A DNA stretch of 32,074 nt, taken from an uncultured bacterium. Its GTDB lineage: Bacteria > Hydrogenedentota > Hydrogenedentia > Hydrogenedentales > JAEUWI01. The notes beneath the pieces were generated by a model. That model did no database searches, was not told the origin of the DNA, and saw nothing but the letters and a program-made list of their open reading frames with translations. The DNA is taken from NCBI GenBank assembly GCA_963977445.1, contig CAXBPH010000053.1:1-32074 (forward strand), read 5' to 3'. Both the position numbers and the translations under genes were made by a program. How positions within the stretch are numbered: position 1 is the first letter of the stretch; each line of letters starts with the position of its first letter. Below, piece by piece: positions 5,596 through 23,567 of this stretch.

Positions 5596-6315
5596 TCAGG
5601 CCGGATGGCCCAGGGCTACCAGAATTTCCCGCACGGCACCTTCCAGCCCTATAAACACGGCCCGGGCGATAATGTCGTGTCCTATGTTCACTTCATGTAA
5701 ACCGGGCAGGGCTACGATGGGTGCAAGATTGGCTACGGTAAGTCCGTGGCCCGCATGGAAGGTCATGGGCGTTTCGGCCAGACAGTCGGCCGATTTCTGG
5801 AGCCGCAGTAGCTCAATCTCCACGTCATCCCCCTGGGCATTGGCATAGGCCCCGGTGTGCAATTCAACACAGTCGGCTCCCGTTTCCAGGCTGGCTTGAA
5901 TCTGCGCGATTTCCGGGTCGATGAACATGCTTACCCGAATACCGTTTGCATGCATTCCGGTAACGACCTCGGTCAGCCACGGTATCTGGCCGGCCACGTC
6001 GAGGCCACCTTCGGTGGTAATTTCTTCACGATTTTCGGGGACAAGGCATACCGTTGCAGGGCGGATTTCGTGGGCAATGGCGATCATCTCGTCCACCGCC
6101 GCCATTTCGAAGTTCATGCGGACCTTGAGAGATTTGGCCAGGCCGTAGATGTCGCGATCCTGAATGTGCCGTCGATCCTGGCGCAGATGCACGGTAATCT
6201 GATGGGCACCCGCCTTTTCACAGAGGGCTGCGGCATCCAGGACACTGGGTACGGCACCTTTTCGGGCTTCGCGCAATGTCGCCACGTGATCGATGTTTAC
6301 ACCGAGCTCAATCAT
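5596..6315 (-). CDS. pdxJ: Pyridoxine 5'-phosphate synthase
   Basis: LGVNIDHVATLR, ITVHLRQDRRHIQD, TTEGGLDV, VELHTG, HAGHGL, EVNIGH. Start moved to ATG 6315, preceded by an AAGGA SD. Confidence 0.96.
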   Translation of the reverse strand: MIELGVNIDHVATLREARKGAVPSVLDAAALCEKAGAHQITVHLRQDRRHIQDRDIYGLAKSLKVRMNFEMAAVDEMIAIAHEIRPATVCLVPENREEITTEGGLDVAGQIPWLTEVVTGMHANGIRVSMFIDPEIAQIQASLETGADCVELHTGAYANAQGDDVEIELLRLQKSADCLAETPMTFHAGHGLTVANLAPIVALPGLHEVNIGHDIIARAVFIGLEGAVREILVALGHPA

Positions 6316-6435
6316 GGGTATTTCCTTCGTAACCTTCGACGCTGATGGATTGGTTAAACCTTCGGCAGGGACGGGCATGGTGCCGTCGTCCGACACCCTT
6401 CACCGGGCCATGCGCACTACGATGGGTGGAGTATG

Positions 6436-7779
6436 CTAGAGCTTGGCTACCTGATCGGCCAGTTGACGGCATAGATCCTGGGCGGCACGGGCATCCTGAT
6501 GTTGGACCATGACCCGCACAATGGGTTCGGTCCCCGACGGTCGGATGACGACCCGTCCCTTGCCCTCGATTTGGTCACGAATGACATCCACCAGGGCATC
6601 GAGTGATTCTTGTGCCGGTTTGGGCTTGTTGCCCAAGGGCACTTTCTGGTGGCTTTCCGGCATTTCCTGGTAGGCTTGGGCAAGGGTCGCGAGGGGTTGC
6701 TCTTTGCGGACGATAATCGCCAGGATCTGCAGGGCAGCAATGATGGCGTCGCCCGTGGTGTTGTGATCCAGGATGATCATATGTCCCGAAGATTCACCAC
6801 CGATGGTCAGCCCCTGATCACGCATGGCTTCAACGACGTAGCGGTCACCGACCTGGGTATGGACAACCGAGCCGCCCCAGGGCTCCAGTGCCCGTGCCAG
6901 GCCACCGTTGGCCATGATAGTGGTGACGATGGTCTTGTGGGGCAGTTCACCCCGCTCCAGGCTGTCGATGCCGAGGACCGCAAGCAGGGCGTTTCCGTCC
7001 AGGAGACGTCCGTTGCCATCGGCCATGACGAGACGGTCGCCGTCGCCGTCGAAGGCGATTCCGAGGTCGGCCCGTTCACGGATGACCATCGCCCGCATTT
7101 CTTCGGGGTGTACCGAGCCAACACCTTTATTAATGTTCATCCCGTCGGGGTCGTTGCCGAGGGCGATAACGGTGGCCCCCAATTCTTTGAGTGTATTGGG
7201 GCCCGCTTTGTAGGTGGCCCCGTGGGAGCAATCGACCACAATTCGGAGGCCATCGAGGCGCATGCCTTTGGGGAAAGACGCCTTTACAAACTCGATATAT
7301 CGCCCAACGGCGTCGTCGATACGGCGTGCAATGCCGATGTCGGAGCCCGTCGGCGGGGTTCTATCTACGTCGCCAGAATTAATCAGGCGTTCGATTTCAT
7401 CTTCCAGTTCGTCGGCGATTTTGTAACCGTCCCGTCCGAAGAGCTTGATACCGTTGTCTTCATAATCGTTGTGGGAAGCCGAAATCATGATGGCCCCATC
7501 GCAGCGGAGGCTCCGCATGATATAAGAGACACCGGGCGTGGGTAGTGGGCCGGTGAGGAGCACGTTAATACCCACGGAACACAGCCCTGCCGTGAGGGCA
7601 TTTTCGAGCATGTAGCAGGAACGGCGGGTATCTTTTCCAATGAGTATCGTGTGGCGGCCACTGCCATTTCGAAACAGGCGGCCTGCCGCCCGACCCACCT
7701 GGAGGGCCATCTCGGCCGTCATCGGGTGGACATTGGCTTTACCCCGGATTCCGTCCGTTCCGAATAAGCGCTCTCCCAT
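6436..7779 (-). CDS. glmM: Phosphoglucosamine mutase
   Basis: LFGTDGIRG, ISASHN (phospho-Ser), DGDGDR metal loop, GGESSGH, RPSGTEP. Follows folP as in many bacteria. Confidence 0.96.
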   Translation of the reverse strand: MGERLFGTDGIRGKANVHPMTAEMALQVGRAAGRLFRNGSGRHTILIGKDTRRSCYMLENALTAGLCSVGINVLLTGPLPTPGVSYIMRSLRCDGAIMISASHNDYEDNGIKLFGRDGYKIADELEDEIERLINSGDVDRTPPTGSDIGIARRIDDAVGRYIEFVKASFPKGMRLDGLRIVVDCSHGATYKAGPNTLKELGATVIALGNDPDGMNINKGVGSVHPEEMRAMVIRERADLGIAFDGDGDRLVMADGNGRLLDGNALLAVLGIDSLERGELPHKTIVTTIMANGGLARALEPWGGSVVHTQVGDRYVVEAMRDQGLTIGGESSGHMIILDHNTTGDAIIAALQILAIIVRKEQPLATLAQAYQEMPESHQKVPLGNKPKPAQESLDALVDVIRDQIEGKGRVVIRPSGTEPIVRVMVQHQDARAAQDLCRQLADQVAKL

Positions 7780-7894
7780 GCTTCTCTCCTTTCATGCTTT
7801 CGCAAGACGCCGTGGCCCCTTAGTTGGCAGGACCTGGCCCATAATAAGTATTTTTCAGTTGCCCGAAAAGATCCGTCGACAGCACGGGACGGAA

Positions 7895-8755
7895 TCAGGC
7901 GTCAAACCCATGTTCAATGGCTTCAATCATGCGCACGATGCGACTCATGGCACGGACATCGTGCACACGGACGCACTGGGCACCCTTCATCACGGACCAA
8001 GCGACCGTGGCCGCCGTTCCTTCCGTGCGATCACCGACATCGGTATTCAAGACGGTGCCAATGGTCGATTTATTCGATGTGCCAATCAGCACGGGTAATC
8101 CAAATTGTCGAAAGGTGCTCAGTTCACGCAACAGCACCAGATTATGCGTCACGGTCTTACCAAAACCAAAACCGGGGTCGAGCCAGAGCTGTTCCCGGGC
8201 AATCCCAGCGCGTTCGGCGGCCCCAATCCGTTCCTCAAAAAAGCGGAGTATCTCTGAAACCACCTCTTCATAATGGGGGGCCTGTTGCATGGACCGTGGC
8301 GTGCCCTGCATATGCATCAGTACACAGGGGCAACCGGATGCTCCAATAACCTCGGCCATGGCCGGGTCGTGTCGGAGCGCACTGATGTCATTAATCAGGG
8401 TTGCACCGTATTCCAGGGCCTGTCGTGCCGTTGCCGCATGGTAGGTGTCGACAGAAACGGGTACGGGACAGTCGTGCAGCCGCTCCAGAAGGGGGGCGAG
8501 ACGCTGCCATTCGGCATCCGGATCCAGCGGTGCCGCGCCCGGTCGTGAGGACTCGGCACCCAAATCCAGAATGTGGGCACCCTCATCGACCAATGTCATG
8601 GCGTGGCGGTAGGCGGCCTCGGGTGTAGGGAGACGACCCCCATCGAAGAAGGAGTCCGGGGTGACATTCACCACCCCCATCACGAGCACGCGCCCCCGTT
8701 TTAAGACGGGGGCGGCGTACCAGGGTAAAAAACGCTTCGATGGGTCAATCATCAT
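7895..8755 (-). CDS. folP: Dihydropteroate synthase
   Basis: VMGVVNVTPDSFFDGG, GAESSRPGA, DPGFGFGK, GTSNKS, RVHDV. Exact start uncertain (8752/8755/8773). Confidence 0.95.
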   Translation of the reverse strand: MMIDPSKRFLPWYAAPVLKRGRVLVMGVVNVTPDSFFDGGRLPTPEAAYRHAMTLVDEGAHILDLGAESSRPGAAPLDPDAEWQRLAPLLERLHDCPVPVSVDTYHAATARQALEYGATLINDISALRHDPAMAEVIGASGCPCVLMHMQGTPRSMQQAPHYEEVVSEILRFFEERIGAAERAGIAREQLWLDPGFGFGKTVTHNLVLLRELSTFRQFGLPVLIGTSNKSTIGTVLNTDVGDRTEGTAATVAWSVMKGAQCVRVHDVRAMSRIVRMIEAIEHGFDA

Positions 8756-8796
8756 GCCGTGCGCAGCTCCCACTACGGGTGCGTCGCAATGCCACC

Positions 8797-10788
8797 CTAA
8801 ACCGTATCCGGCACGATACCGCCAGACGATACCTGGTCGGAACCACCGTCTTCATCAATATTTTCGTCAATGCTCTTCCGGCTGGATGCGTCATCACCGG
8901 GAGCGATTACCGTTCCTTCGTCCGGGGTCGTCGCGGGCTCGGGATCGGCGGGAATCAGGTCGGGACCACCCACGCGGCGGATAATTTCATTTACTTCCGC
9001 CGCATCCAGGGTCTCGCGCTCAAAGAGTTCGTCGCCGAGGGTCTTCAATATGTCGAAATGAGTTTCCAGTAAGTTTTTTGCGTCGCGGTAGGCTTCTTCC
9101 AGCAGACGGTGGACTTCGCGGTCAACGGCCGCGGCAGTTTCGTCACTGTGGTCGCGGGTCTTGCCGAAATCCCGGCCGATGAACACTTCGTCGCCGCCAC
9201 CAAAGGAGATAGGGCCCAATTCGCTCATGCCCCACTCACAGACCATGCTGTGGGCGCGGGCGGTGGCCACCTTGAGGTCGTTGGAGGCACCGCTGTTGAA
9301 TTCGCCATAGATGAGTTCTTCGGCGGCACGGCCACCCATGGTAACCCGCATATTGGCGAGACACCATTTCCGGGAGGCACAAAACTTGTCTTCAACGGGT
9401 AGATAGCTCGTTACGCCCAGGGCCGGTCCACGGGGGATGACGGTAACCTTGTGCATGGGGTCGGCATGGGGCAGGAGCTGACACAGGAGGGCGTGGCCGG
9501 CTTCGTGGTAGGCCGTGGCGAGTTTCTGTTCCTGACTCATGATCAGGCTGACTCTCGCGGGACCCATCATGACGCGATCTTTGGCATCTTCGAAGTCGAT
9601 CATCTGGACCACTTCCTGATCACGGCGGGCCGCGAGGAGGGCCGCTTCATTGACCATGTTGGCCAGATCGGCACCGGAAAATCCGGGGGTGCCCCGTGCC
9701 AGAACCTTGGTATCCAGTTCGGGCCCGTAGGGTACCTTCTGATTCTTGATGTGGATATCGAGAATTTGCTGACGGCCTTTAATATCGGGATTGGCGACAA
9801 CCACCTGGCGGTCAAAGCGGCCGGGGCGGAGGAGGGCGCGATCCAGTACGTCGGGGCGGTTGGTCGCGGCGATAAGGATGACGCCGTCGTTGGTGTTGAA
9901 ACCGTCCATCTCGACGAGAAGCTGATTCAGGGTCTGTTCCCGTTCATCATGGCCACCACCGAGTCCGGCGCCACGCTGCCGTCCCACGGCGTCAATTTCA
10001 TCAATAAAGATGATGCAGGGGGCGTGTTTGTGGCCCTGTTGAAACAGATCCCGGACGCGACTGGCACCCACACCGACGAACATCTCGACAAAGTCGGAGC
10101 CACTGATGCTGAAGAAGGGCACACTGGCTTCGCCGGCCACGGCACGGGCGAGGAGGGTTTTACCCGATCCGGGAGGGCCCACGAGGAGGACGCCCCGGGG
10201 GATCTTACCGCCAAGGCGGGTGAATTTCTTGGGCTCTTTGAGGAACTCGATGATTTCGTGGAGCTCTTCTTTGGCTTCATCGACGCCGGCCACATCATCG
10301 AAGGTGGCGGTCTTGTCACCCTGGTTGACCATGCGGGCCCGGCTTTTTCCGAAGGACATGGCCTTGTTGTTGCCGCCCTGCATCTGGCGAATCATGAAGA
10401 ACCAGAAGGCACCGATGATGAGGATCAGGATGAAAATCTGAAACAACATCTGCCCGATAAAGGGATTGTGCTCGGTATAGATGACACCAACGCTGTTTGC
10501 GTCGAGTTTGGTTTCCCAGGTTTTGTCAAATTCGGGAACGGTGAAGTTCAGCTCTCGCTGTTTGGCTTCTCCTACGGGTTCCTTGAATTTGGCATAGACC
10601 TGAACCGAATTGTCGCCGGTCGTTACCTTGACCGGATCATCGATGTTGTTGAGGTCCATTTGTTCCAGAAAACCGCGCTGGCCCGTTACGGTTGGCTTGG
10701 TATTCATCTGGGAGAACTGGGTCAATACAAGGACGACGATAATCGCCATGACAACCCAAAGGGATACTTGTTTGAATACACCATTCAT
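8797..10788 (-). CDS. ftsH: ATP-dependent zinc metalloprotease FtsH
   Basis: Two N-terminal TM helices, [19 protein letters not shown] ([20 protein letters not shown]) and HEAGH zinc motif. Confidence 0.98.
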
Positions 10789-20250: not shown

Positions 20251-21537
20251 TTAGAAGAAATACCGGCCAAAAAATGAGCCAATCGCATGAAAAAACGAGC
20301 CCACCAGGCCGCGTCGGACCTCGATGCGTCCATTTCGTGCCGCGGAGCGGTATTCGAAGCCGTGCCGGGCCACACCGACCACGGGTGTAAAGGCGGTGCA
20401 TTGCACGGGCTGGGGCATGACGTCTATGCCATCGGGCATGCCCTGGCGGGAAGGTACCTGGAAGACGGCTTCGGCCAGCCGCACCTGATTGCGAATGGAC
20501 GCGGCACCACCGGTCAGGATTATGCCCCGCACGAGATGCTTGGAGAGTCCACGGGAATTGATGAACTGATGCACTTTTTGCAGGAGCTCACGGGAGCGCT
20601 CGAAGATAATCATTTCGAGTACTTCCCGGTCTACGATTTCGGGGGCACCGTGGACGGCGGTCTTCAATTTAATCTGTGCTGCACGGCCCGTGGGGCTATC
20701 AATTTCATCCTCATCGGTCTCATCGATTTCCCGCTGAATGAGCGCTTCGGAGACACCATATTCGAGGACGAGTTCATCGGCTTCTTCAAAGGAAACATGG
20801 AGGCCTGCGGCAACATCACGGGTAATGTGGAAGCCACCCCAATCGAAACACTGGGTGGTGAGGATTCGTCGATCGCGATACATGGCCAGGCTGGTGGTGC
20901 TTCGGCCCATATCGAGAATCGCGACGCCCAACTCCATGTCTTCCGGGGTGAGACAGCCGAGTCCTGCAGCGAGGGGGAGAAAGACCATGTCTTCCAGCTC
21001 GCGCCCCTGGGATTCGATACAGGAAACGATATTGTCTTCAATGACCGAAGGGATTTGGGCGAAATGGACCCGGGTCTTCAGGACACTGCCGCGAATGCCG
21101 ACGGGGTCACTGACGCGGAGGTCATCGACATACCACTCTTGTGAGGTGATGGAGGAAATGACATGTTTGCCCGGAGCGAGGATGTCGCGGGAGGCCAGAT
21201 CGAGGGCTTCTTCCAGATGGGCGAGCTCTACCACATCGCGGTCGAGCTTTACGTTGCCCTCGCGAATGAAGGATTCCACATTCGTGCCACTGAGGCCGCA
21301 AAACAGAGAAGATACCTTGACGCCGGCTTCTTTTTCGGCACCGTGAAGGGCTTGTTTGAGTGCGCGCTGGGCGGCACTCAGGTCCTGAATGAGCCCCTGG
21401 GATACGCAGCCTCGGCCCTGGGCGGTGCCGTGTCCGAGAATCTGGACCGTTCCGTCGTTGCCTTCGAGTGCGATAATGACACGGACTTCCCGGGAGCCGA
21501 AATCAACGGCCCCGACGATTTCACCTTTTCTGGCCAC
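20251..21537 (-). CDS. ftsA: FtsA-like actin-family protein (divergent, orphan)
   Basis: VDFGS phosphate-1, G..vsqGLIqDL, EKEAG, SHS2 1C domain (EWYVDD..DPVGIRG..LKTRVH), PLAAGLGCLTPEDMELGVAILDMG, GGFHITRDVA, IILTGG and C-terminal amphipathic helix SFFHAIGSFFGRYFF. Confidence 0.85.
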   Translation of the reverse strand: MARKGEIVGAVDFGSREVRVIIALEGNDGTVQILGHGTAQGRGCVSQGLIQDLSAAQRALKQALHGAEKEAGVKVSSLFCGLSGTNVESFIREGNVKLDRDVVELAHLEEALDLASRDILAPGKHVISSITSQEWYVDDLRVSDPVGIRGSVLKTRVHFAQIPSVIEDNIVSCIESQGRELEDMVFLPLAAGLGCLTPEDMELGVAILDMGRSTTSLAMYRDRRILTTQCFDWGGFHITRDVAAGLHVSFEEADELVLEYGVSEALIQREIDETDEDEIDSPTGRAAQIKLKTAVHGAPEIVDREVLEMIIFERSRELLQKVHQFINSRGLSKHLVRGIILTGGAASIRNQVRLAEAVFQVPSRQGMPDGIDVMPQPVQCTAFTPVVGVARHGFEYRSAARNGRIEVRRGLVGSFFHAIGSFFGRYFF

Positions 21538-21621
21538 GATCAGGCATTTCCTTCCTGTTGTATACCTGCGGTTCGCACAAACCTGCGCACGCGCCTGATC
21601 AACCAGCGATTTTCCGTTGCA

Positions 21622-23382
21622 CTATTCGGCATGGGCATCGTGCCCGTCGGTCTCATTGCCTTCGTGATCGTTGTGTTCTTCATTCGTGGTCTCGGCCGCT
21701 GCCGGTGCGGCTCCGCCGCCCACATGTCCGATTGTCTTTTCGATATCAAGAATCGAGCTGTTCCGCGATTCCAGTTCGCGCCGGGCGGCGTCGAGCGTAG
21801 TGGTGTGATCGCCGCCTTTTTCCTGCAATGCCTGTACCCGATCGCGGACGCTCTGGAGATTTTCCTGGGCGCCGCCTTCCTCTTCATTGAGGGTATCGAG
21901 CTCGGCCTGCATCCGACTTTCTTCGGTGAGGCTGTCGTCCAATATTTCCTGACAATCCAGGAGGCGTTCCCGTTCGGTTTCGCGGCGAACTTCCAACTCG
22001 GCGATTTGCCGGTCAAGATCAGAAACGGCGCCTTCCGCATTGGATACATTTTCGCGGAGTTGCTGAATATGTTCCCGCTTGCCGTCGAATTCCTGCTGAC
22101 ACTGGGTGCGCTGTTCTTCCAGTGCGCGGAGTCGCTCTTCGGCATCGGCTACGGCCTGTTCGGCGGCGGTAATTTCTTCCGTATTGCTCGAAATGGTCGA
22201 TTCGATTTCGGCAAGATGCGCTTCCGCCTGCTGGGCTTCCAGGCGGGCCATATTCGCGGCAAGCTGGAGCGCGAATACCTTGGCGTCGCCCACATTGCCC
22301 AGGGCCATGGCCTGCTGGGCTGTTTTCCAGAGGGCTTCCGGGGTGCCGGGTTCTGGTTCGGGCTCGGCGACCGGTGCGGGTGCTTGTACGGGGTCGGGTA
22401 TTGGCACTGGCTCGGGAGTGAGCTCGGGTTCTTCCTCCACTTCAGCAGAAAGATCCAGTTCCATGGGCTCGGGTGTTTCCGATTCATTGTCTTCGTTCGT
22501 CGACAACGAGTCGTCTTCTTCTACCGCAGGAGTTTCGCTATCTTGTTCCTGATCAAAGGAAGGCGGATCGAAAACGGTGGGCTCGTCGGCGGTAAAATCA
22601 TTGGACAGAGACATTTCAGACGCGCTGTCATCGTCCGTTCCGTCGATGAGTTCGTCGAGGGAAGGCATCTCTGACGCGAGGGTGCCTGTTGGTGTTGATG
22701 GGGGTGTGCCAAAGGGGCTGTCGTCATCGGTGGTGAAGGCGAAGGGGTCGTTATCTTTTTCGGGCATGGGTGCATGGTGAAATGCTCCCCCATTGTCACC
22801 GGCGAACTGGTCTTCCGAGTTACCAATCAAGGCGTCGAATGCCGAACCGCTTTGGGGTTCGTTGTTGGGTTCCGGTGCAAAGGGATCGGGTGTATCGATG
22901 GTGCGATTTTCGGCGTCCCGCGCGGTCTCTTGCTGACCTTCCCGTTCAAGGGTTGCTTCGTCATCCACGAGGGTGAGCCCGAGGTTGGCCAATGCGTCGA
23001 GGGCGCGTTCGTAGCGTTCGCGCCATTTTTTCATGACGCCGGAGCGCACATTGTCGACGATGAGATCGCCGACCATGAGGCAGAGAATTTCGTAACTGTC
23101 CTTTAAGAAGGGAACACAGTCGGACGCCATGCCTGCATCTTCGTAGGTCTGCAGGATGCGGGCCGTGTCGGTGAGGGCTTCTTTGACGTCTGCCCAGGAT
23201 TCGGTGAGGGCAATTTCGATGCCGATGATGAGTTGATTCATGCACTCATCACACCAGGCCTCCTGGGAGATTCCCTCTTCGGCCCGACCCACTTGGCGTT
23301 GGAACCGGCCCAGTGCGGTCAGTAGACGCTGGGTTGGGTCACCCGCAACCATGGGTTCGTCGGGGGTCTGGGGGGTCGTCAT
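21622..23382 (-). CDS. Hypothetical protein: N-terminal helical domain, acidic Pro-rich linker, long C-terminal coiled coil
   Basis: Long ORF with protein-like composition. The likely start is ATG 23382, with GAGGA 7 nt upstream and a predicted promoter at 23539-23567. No family recognised. Confidence 0.75.
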   Translation of the reverse strand: MTTPQTPDEPMVAGDPTQRLLTALGRFQRQVGRAEEGISQEAWCDECMNQLIIGIEIALTESWADVKEALTDTARILQTYEDAGMASDCVPFLKDSYEILCLMVGDLIVDNVRSGVMKKWRERYERALDALANLGLTLVDDEATLEREGQQETARDAENRTIDTPDPFAPEPNNEPQSGSAFDALIGNSEDQFAGDNGGAFHHAPMPEKDNDPFAFTTDDDSPFGTPPSTPTGTLASEMPSLDELIDGTDDDSASEMSLSNDFTADEPTVFDPPSFDQEQDSETPAVEEDDSLSTNEDNESETPEPMELDLSAEVEEEPELTPEPVPIPDPVQAPAPVAEPEPEPGTPEALWKTAQQAMALGNVGDAKVFALQLAANMARLEAQQAEAHLAEIESTISSNTEEITAAEQAVADAEERLRALEEQRTQCQQEFDGKREHIQQLRENVSNAEGAVSDLDRQIAELEVRRETERERLLDCQEILDDSLTEESRMQAELDTLNEEEGGAQENLQSVRDRVQALQEKGGDHTTTLDAARRELESRNSSILDIEKTIGHVGGGAAPAAAETTNEEHNDHEGNETDGHDAHAE

Positions 23383-23538
23383 GGCGATTTCCTCATGATC
23401 TGTGGCTATAGGTTCCTGTGCCGAGGCCAGGGTAACGGGAGCTTCGACGAGCGTGGGCTCCCCAAAAAAACGGCGGCCAACTGCCGCAAGATTTCGGGTC
23501 TTCTTTCCAAAACGCACCGAGGGCACCTCCAAAGTTTT

Positions 23539-23567
23539 ATTGTAACACAGCGATACCACGGAGGCAA
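23539..23567 (-). promoter_or_regulatory. Putative sigma70 promoter for the hypothetical-ftsA unit
   Basis: Minus strand TTGCCT-17 bp-TACAAT with a TGn extension. Confidence 0.55.

Follow-up and report, generated by a model that had tools for sequence, protein, structure and literature searches.

To our knowledge, the direct partners described for FtsA are FtsZ and FtsN, the latter a membrane protein. Accessory proteins of the Z-ring that are specific to one lineage are a known kind. We describe here a two-gene locus in which a strongly diverged ftsA follows a gene for a protein that we call the partner. The locus lies in a contig of an uncultured bacterium of the Hydrogenedentales (GCA_963977445.1, contig CAXBPH010000053.1), whose 32,074 nucleotides make up the stretch analyzed, referred to below as the window. 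Among the closest described systems is FtsN, whose first residues, aromatic at their centre and with basic stretches, bind the IA-IC cleft of FtsA; the same cleft of PilM binds PilN (PMC7613929). FtsA of Thermotoga maritima binds the FtsZ tail; according to three accounts (bioRxiv 2022.02.25.482027, PMC4252000, PMC7613929), it is seen bound to Mg-ATP (1E4G) and forms filaments, as in the ATP-gamma-S structure 4A2B.

Our favored reading, to which we give a probability of roughly 45%, is that the window encodes the sole FtsA of its genome, diverged, separated from ftsZ and likely acting as an ATP-binding tether of the Z-ring, together with a co-expressed, lineage-specific divisome scaffold that binds FtsA. 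The FtsA, although diverged, belongs to a known family; the novelty lies in the partner. The features of the FtsA gene are as follows.

20251..21537, minus strand: ftsA, 428 amino acids, the genome's only copy and a strongly diverged one; TIGR01174 match
21481..21504, minus strand: phosphate-1 loop D12-R19 (D12-FGSREV-R19); canonical K17 lost, R19 gained
21061..21288, minus strand: 1C (SHS2) subdomain, residues 84-159; PF02491 31.5 against a cut-off of 25.4
20893..20913, minus strand: phosphate-2 loop D209-T215 (D209-MGRSTT); D209 and G211 kept, G212 and G213 replaced
20755..20790, minus strand: helix F250-G261 (A253-DELV); canonical E254 and K257 lost
20587..20610, minus strand: subdomain 2B stretch I310-E317, equivalent of Escherichia coli R300/E303 by alignment
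20254..20298, minus strand: C-terminal amphipathic helix, predicted to target the membrane; hydrophobic moment at most 0.55

We compared this locus across 135 genomes of Candidatus Hydrogenedentota, comprising 133 in the main order, which we infer to be Hydrogenedentales, and two outgroups (G001 and G002). The source genome (G000) is 94% complete in 464 contigs. The partner occurs in single copy in 128 of the 133 order genomes and in neither outgroup; the five order genomes with no match have a completeness of 66-88%, and in two its C-terminal part is present before ftsA. At the ftsA loci of the order, the partner gene stands directly upstream on the same strand in 117 of 125 cases by BLAST and in two more by profile, the remaining six being at a contig edge. 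Fourteen further partner loci either run into ftsA (G033, G104 and G127) or end at most 436 bp from a contig edge (11 loci). Altogether, the linkage holds in 122/122 assessable genomes, with 11 unassessable and zero counter-examples, so that the two-gene unit proposed in the preliminary description of this DNA is borne out, as is its account of the upstream protein as scaffold-like, which proves undescribed and lineage-restricted. The gap between the genes is 84 bp in the window, as first reported, with a median of 80 bp across the order and at most 150 bp in 99 of 117 loci. The genes on either side are variable, with glycogen phosphorylase following in 21 of 49 loci and different genes upstream. 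These genomes are kin and not independent, hence the counts measure retention since one event rather than repeated gain. The partner frame is interrupted in four assemblies (L202 in G014, L170 in G078, L257 in G033 and L192 in G106), which may reflect faulty assembly or a genuine split.

The preliminary description took this FtsA for a paralogue, a second FtsA in its cell. The source genome has a single ftsA: the remaining profile matches are MreB, PilM and one weak match, and no canonical ftsA stands beside ftsZ. TIGR01174 is matched in all 135 genomes and exceeds its cut-off (175.85 bits) in 120, leaving aside 351 weaker matches, all below about 65 bits. In five well-assembled genomes, two of them single-contig (G069, of the same genus, and G034), we found exactly one ftsA locus above the cut-off each; the 1C profile found four of the five. 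A canonical ftsA fragment does occur in one genome (G126), in a murC-ftsQ-ftsA arrangement on a 3.5-kb contig (L239, G126:C184). It is likely contamination, because this contig duplicates the murC and ftsQ already present beside the ftsZ of that bin.

The ftsZ gene of the source genome is single and lies mid-contig (G000:C94) in the order murC-ftsQ-ftsZ-pilT, 138 bp behind ftsQ. Here the FtsQ-like open reading frame (ORF) is named by position and anatomy, PF03799 giving no FtsQ match in that genome. Among 29 ftsZ loci of the order (28 from among the best-scoring and that of the source genome), ftsQ adjoins ftsZ in 28 and ftsA in none; conversely, ftsZ is near ftsA in 0/125 order loci, and in 0/49 loci with flanks up to 6 kb. 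In both outgroups ftsA and ftsZ are adjacent and FtsA is canonical (TIGR01174 424 and 435 bits), against at most 254 bits in the order, whereas FtsZ scores are alike in both. FtsZ has thus not diverged in step with FtsA, and its C-terminal tail motif is intact. The gain of the partner coincides with the relocation of ftsA and with this FtsA-specific divergence, which may be vertical or may stem from replacement by a foreign copy. The partner stayed joined to ftsA while the rest of the cluster of cell wall and division genes (dcw) fragmented. The preliminary description had named, as grounds for abandoning its view, a sole ftsA whose substitutions the whole lineage shares in a dcw-linked copy. 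The gene is indeed the sole one and the substitutions are order-wide; a dcw-linked copy does not exist at all. In the source genome, murC-ftsQ-ftsZ-pilT is isolated behind a prepilin-type gene (G000:C94:13013-19479), and ftsZ overlaps the start of the pilT-family gene (L005:754; G000:C94:14113). The pilT gene follows ftsZ in 19 of 31 ftsZ loci, both outgroups included, and ftsQ is absent before ftsZ in G034 and G036.

SepF, ZipA (ZipA_C) and MinC above cut-off were each found in 0 of the 135 genomes; ZapA was found in 105 but not in the source genome. According to one paper, Gracilicutes except Fusobacteria have FtsA only (PMC8178401). The FtsA of the window is the only recognizable Z-ring anchor of its genome and, since SepF and ZipA were not found, is likely to play this role; that it anchors the Z-ring in the usual way we hold with high confidence. 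With MinC, SepF and ZipA all at zero, no known system of division-site selection was found in the phylum.

Family assignment of the protein is clear: it scores 240 bits with TIGR01174 and 72.1 with PF14450 (cut-off 31.8). PilM identity fails (TIGR01175 21.2 against 133), MreB_Mbl reaches 21.9 for a cut-off of 27, and PilM_2 reaches 28.1 for 27 over a stretch of 59 residues only; mreB and pilM are present elsewhere in the genome as separate genes. Relatives at 83-90% identity come from Candidatus Hydrogenedentota/Hydrogenedentales. Against a canonical set of 122 FtsAs (the 120 best matches of the G002 FtsA and both outgroups), mean identity is 27%, compared with 57% for the G002 FtsA. The 1C domain and amphipathic C-terminal tail described at the outset are both retained, and similar tails are found, by sequence, throughout the order. 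Relative to canonical FtsA, subdomain 2B carries an acidic insertion at residues 269-283 (window 20689-20733, minus strand).

The nucleotide site had been read as degenerate. The motif readings DFGSREV, DMGRSTT and ADELV are correct, and the losses are order-wide: K17, G213, E254 and K257 (each 122/122 in the canonical set), as well as G212 (120/122), are each missing from 97-100% of 117 full-length FtsAs of the order. In total, 33 swaps are fixed and 64 positions lost; K257 occurs in 0/124 order sequences. However, core residues are kept, as counted over up to 125 order sequences: D12 and G14 (122/122 each), A190 (123/125), G211 (125/125), G234 (124/125), G343 and G344 (122/122 each) and D209 (119/125, with N in six), while R212 occurs in 87/125. 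In a structural study, E. coli E14, A188, D210 and Y375 lie near Mg (bioRxiv 2022.02.25.482027); equivalents of the first three are kept in the order, and that of Y375 is aromatic in 112/120.

The same three departures are present in T. maritima FtsA, whose motifs read DIGSRYIK, NLGYNFT and FEESERLII (1E4F), the lysine of the third also missing. Staphylococcus aureus FtsA (3WT0) has DIGSSSVK and DIGEDVT, with the phosphate-1 layout of 1E4F and of the window protein. Both solved structures have bulky residues behind the phosphate-2 glycine. Position 19, a cysteine in 121/122 canonical FtsAs, is an arginine in 120/122 order FtsAs, that is, a basic residue where these two proteins have lysine; to judge from the alignment, the lost lysine is offset by the new arginine. 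Because the ATP-bound T. maritima FtsA shows the same departures and the core residues are kept, the order-wide pattern is, at sequence level, compatible with nucleotide binding, and the window FtsA probably does bind nucleotide. Departures from the E. coli motifs are no evidence of a dead site. R314 (120/122) and E317 (119/122), aligned to E. coli R300/E303 via the G002 FtsA, are conserved as well. With these presumed FtsZ-tail residues kept, a partner in place of FtsZ, as first proposed, is unlikely.

The partner gene and its features, again on the minus strand, are as follows.

23539..23567, minus strand: sigma70 promoter predicted ahead of the two genes, with an extended -10; consensus match only
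23525..23530, minus strand: GGAGGT ribosome-binding site, 7 nt ahead of the GTG start; from sequence
21622..23517, minus strand: partner gene, GTG start at 23517, 631 amino acids, net charge -98, no transmembrane segment
23458..23517, minus strand: residues 1-20, an N-terminal peptide that is conserved, basic and aromatic, with a net charge of +5; from pattern and alignment
22957..23343, minus strand: residues 59-187, histidine-free bundle of five helices that has the CheA P1 (Hpt) fold; model, pLDDT (predicted local distance difference test) 94.7
22348..22914, minus strand: residues about 202-390, acidic proline-rich linker, predicted disordered; pLDDT below 50
21718..22341, minus strand: residues 393-600, short helix and a coiled coil of about 190-200 residues; helices at high pLDDT

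The upstream protein, first given as 586 amino acids, is extended to 631 by the GTG start at 23517 behind GGAGGT; this form is in the ESM Atlas letter for letter and the 586-residue form is not. The single predicted promoter ahead of both genes is recovered at 23567-23539 with 9/12 matches and a TG before the -10, at a frequency of five such sites per 4.2 kb against 1.5±1.1 in shuffled sequences. Within the stretch coding for the N-terminal peptide lies a terminator-like hairpin with a T run (23470-23487, minus strand); nine such hairpins were found against 4.9±2.0 in shuffles, and this one may be due to chance or be an attenuator. No Pfam or NCBIfam family scores above cut-off and no PDB sequence matches the partner. 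Run against 1.84 billion representatives, a profile of its N-domain retrieves 201 clusters, of which 195 match at 1e-10 or better; by sequence, the N-domain family is therefore a tight one. ESM Atlas feature matches of 0.88-0.92 are leads only. In a title-level search of the literature, with most subscription journals and supplements outside its scope, we found no description of the partner or of FtsA and cell division in Hydrogenedentota.

Conservation is highest in the first six residues (R2 68/73, F3 62/73 and G4 57/73 in the alignment). Of 92 loci, 74 match a strict pattern for the peptide, and 58 of these also have a ribosome-binding site; several misses are one-letter variants. Residues 8-18 of the window copy have a hydrophobic moment of 0.76, above the 0.55 of the FtsA tail. 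A Tat signal at the twin arginines was rejected, as no hydrophobic stretch follows. An EERxALL motif near residue 40 is found in most relatives and is lost from the window copy. The bundle superposes on 3KYJ with a root mean square deviation of 2.5 Å over 124 residues (Z 17.1, TM score 0.70), the next unrelated natural folds being at Z of about 11. Pfam and PDB sequence searches with this domain gave zero matches. It holds no phospho-accepting histidine in the window copy, and among relatives the richest column of helix B has histidine in 10 of 69. The linker is 25% D+E and 10% P among 70 relatives and variable in length. In families f7 and f13 (L174, L189, L214; 44 of 70 full-length partners) it contains an extra helical domain of about 110 residues, whose interpretation as a P1-like repeat was dropped (HHalign probability to the N-domain 0.5%). 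The coiled coil gives only generic SMC and receptor coiled-coil matches, below the bar for naming; it may form a long parallel dimer or, as in the monomer model, a hairpin, the break of which falls within a conserved heptad. The highest 19-residue hydropathy, 1.42, lies inside the helical bundle, so that no transmembrane helix is present. An acidic C-terminal tail ending in LF, which may be a binding or degradation motif, is seen in 54/70 loci and 97/150 representatives and is absent from the window copy. A role as replacement for ZapA was rejected in view of ZapA's presence in 105/135 genomes.

Taken together, these features make the partner a likely lineage-specific divisome scaffold that would bind FtsA. 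Its N-terminal peptide would dock in the IA-IC cleft of FtsA in the manner of the FtsN tail, or lie on the adjacent membrane; the peak of conservation in the first six residues fits such docking. The histidine-less bundle would dock another protein instead of taking part in a phosphorelay, the acidic linker would act as a flexible spacer, and the coiled coil would oligomerize, allowing the partner to cross-link or tune FtsA filaments at the division site. It may also compete with, or modulate, the FtsN-like protein of the genome (G000:C439, L244:1489-2370), which has a basic tail, one hydrophobic helix, a proline-rich linker and a SPOR domain. If so, the partner, soluble and found order-wide, would represent a new type of regulator for FtsA, and a division protein with a CheA-P1-like fold would come as a surprise; the pair of proteins could be studied in vitro or in E. 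coli, with no need to grow the source organism. A bolder version, which we consider unlikely, is that the order has rewired early division: FtsA, having left the ftsZ operon, would have co-evolved with a soluble mimic of FtsN, whose N-terminal peptide would switch FtsA filaments, its histidine-less P1 domain would dock a response regulator, and signaling, not Min, would place or time the Z-ring.

Several points weigh against the favored reading. Co-transcribed neighbors need not act together; here co-expression is itself predicted, and the interaction with FtsA is a putative one. Relocation, divergence and partner gain fall on one branch, with two outgroup genomes, and count as one event. The genome's own FtsN-like SPOR protein, with its basic tail, is another likely ligand of the cleft, and residues 7-20 of the partner peptide differ between families. 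In FtsA, position 254 is E in only 4/125 order sequences and D in 70/125 (acidic in 74/125), where T. maritima keeps glutamate, and the position of E. coli S84 is variable (N 80/125, S 16/125). Finally, the role of E. coli R300/E303 in binding the FtsZ tail is a presumed one.

It is possible, though we find it doubtful, that FtsA is an ordinary division protein and the partner is merely co-transcribed with it, acting elsewhere as a polar or chromosome-organizing scaffold or as a hub for CheY-like regulators. The CheA-P1 fold, the SMC- and chemoreceptor-like coiled-coil matches and an acidic linker typical of the polar hubs PopZ and FimV/HubP would fit such a role. Yet adjacency persists in 122/122 genomes while neighbors on both sides change, and the coiled-coil matches are generic. 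Moreover, since CheA is found in only 69/135 genomes (2/23 in family f3), against 128/133 for the partner, the latter does not depend on chemotaxis, and its candidacy as a chemotaxis accessory is weakened. Quite unlikely, in our view, is a second FtsZ tether or Z-ring organizer like ZipA or EzrA, with its basic amphipathic N-terminus on the membrane, its acidic linker reaching across to an FtsZ-binding domain and FtsA left untouched. The strong moment of residues 8-18, an anchor-linker-domain layout, the lack of SepF, ZipA and MinC among the 135 genomes and a weak EzrA match all agree with it. But the gene keeps company with ftsA, not ftsZ, the peptide of family f13 often forms no amphipathic helix, and conservation centered on the first six residues suggests a specific pocket.

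The remaining explanations concern FtsA. The near-complete loss of K17, G212, G213, E254 and K257, together with the 33 swaps and 64 lost positions, could mean that ATP binding or hydrolysis by the sole FtsA is gone or greatly reduced and that control of its assembly passed to the partner. We regard this as improbable given the core residues that persist (D12, G14, A190, D209, G211, G234, G343 and G344), the basic R19, and the bulky residues after the phosphate-2 glycine in T. maritima and S. aureus. For the view that this is a second FtsA, ATP-dead and turned to a partner other than FtsZ, and that the assembly lacks the real ftsA, the incompleteness of that assembly and the canonical fragment in G126 could be invoked. 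This idea is largely refuted and highly improbable: ftsQ and ftsZ are adjacent mid-contig, the single-contig genomes G069 and G034 have one ftsA each, the G126 fragment points to contamination, and the FtsZ-tail residues are kept.

Around the locus, a DUF4184 gene and glycogen phosphorylase lie downstream of ftsA, and rpsD, purA and mfd are divergent. None of the 20 window ORFs scanned is ftsQ, ftsZ or a mur gene, in agreement with the first account. An ordinary housekeeping run, ftsH-folP-glmM-pdxJ, occupies window 5596-10788 (minus strand). Elsewhere in the genome (G000:C37, L003:220-2496), PilM is a protein of 758 amino acids that runs on into a segment resembling PilN and bearing a hydrophobic helix, an apparent PilM-PilN fusion; PilM-level open frames of 670-812 amino acids in five relatives suggest that it is perhaps general.

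Comparison with known systems sets the partner apart from each. With SMC/Rad50 it shares matches in the coiled coil only, far below cut-offs, and its model has no ABC-type head or hinge. Its five-helix fold is that of CheA P1/Hpt domains (3KYJ, 1I5N and 1TQG; Z 17.1, 16.1 and 13.3), but identity is 6-11%, and the partner has neither a histidine there nor a Pfam Hpt match nor kinase domains. ZipA, EzrA, ZapB and other lineage-specific accessories of the Z-ring share with it a modular build, whether anchor-linker-domain or long coiled coil, and restriction to a single lineage; the partner shows no homology to them above cut-off (EzrA 18.3 against 39.6; ZipA_C 0/135), has no transmembrane anchor, is linked to ftsA and carries a P1-like domain. 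Like the tail of FtsN, and that of PilN on PilM, its N-terminal peptide is short and basic and includes an aromatic residue, but the partner lacks the transmembrane helix and SPOR domain of FtsN, for which a separate FtsN-like gene exists in the genome. The FtsA differs from canonical FtsA in its separation from ftsZ, its identity of about 27%, its acidic insertion at 269-283 and its fixed partner gene, and from the proteobacterial or deltaproteobacterial type in lacking TxK, GGG, ExxK and ftsZ adjacency. Its three motif departures are those of T. maritima FtsA (1E4F/1E4G/4A2A/4A2B), a protein that is more distant overall (57 bits, against 136 for Vibrio), so that the shared motifs may be convergent; it keeps the glutamate at 254. 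With FtsA at large (TIGR01174), it shares the actin fold with 1C, the acidic residues of the Mg site, the glycine loops, the R300/E303 equivalents and the C-terminal amphipathic helix, and its best structure matches by sequence are the FtsAs of E. coli (7Q6D) and Vibrio maritimus (7Q6F).

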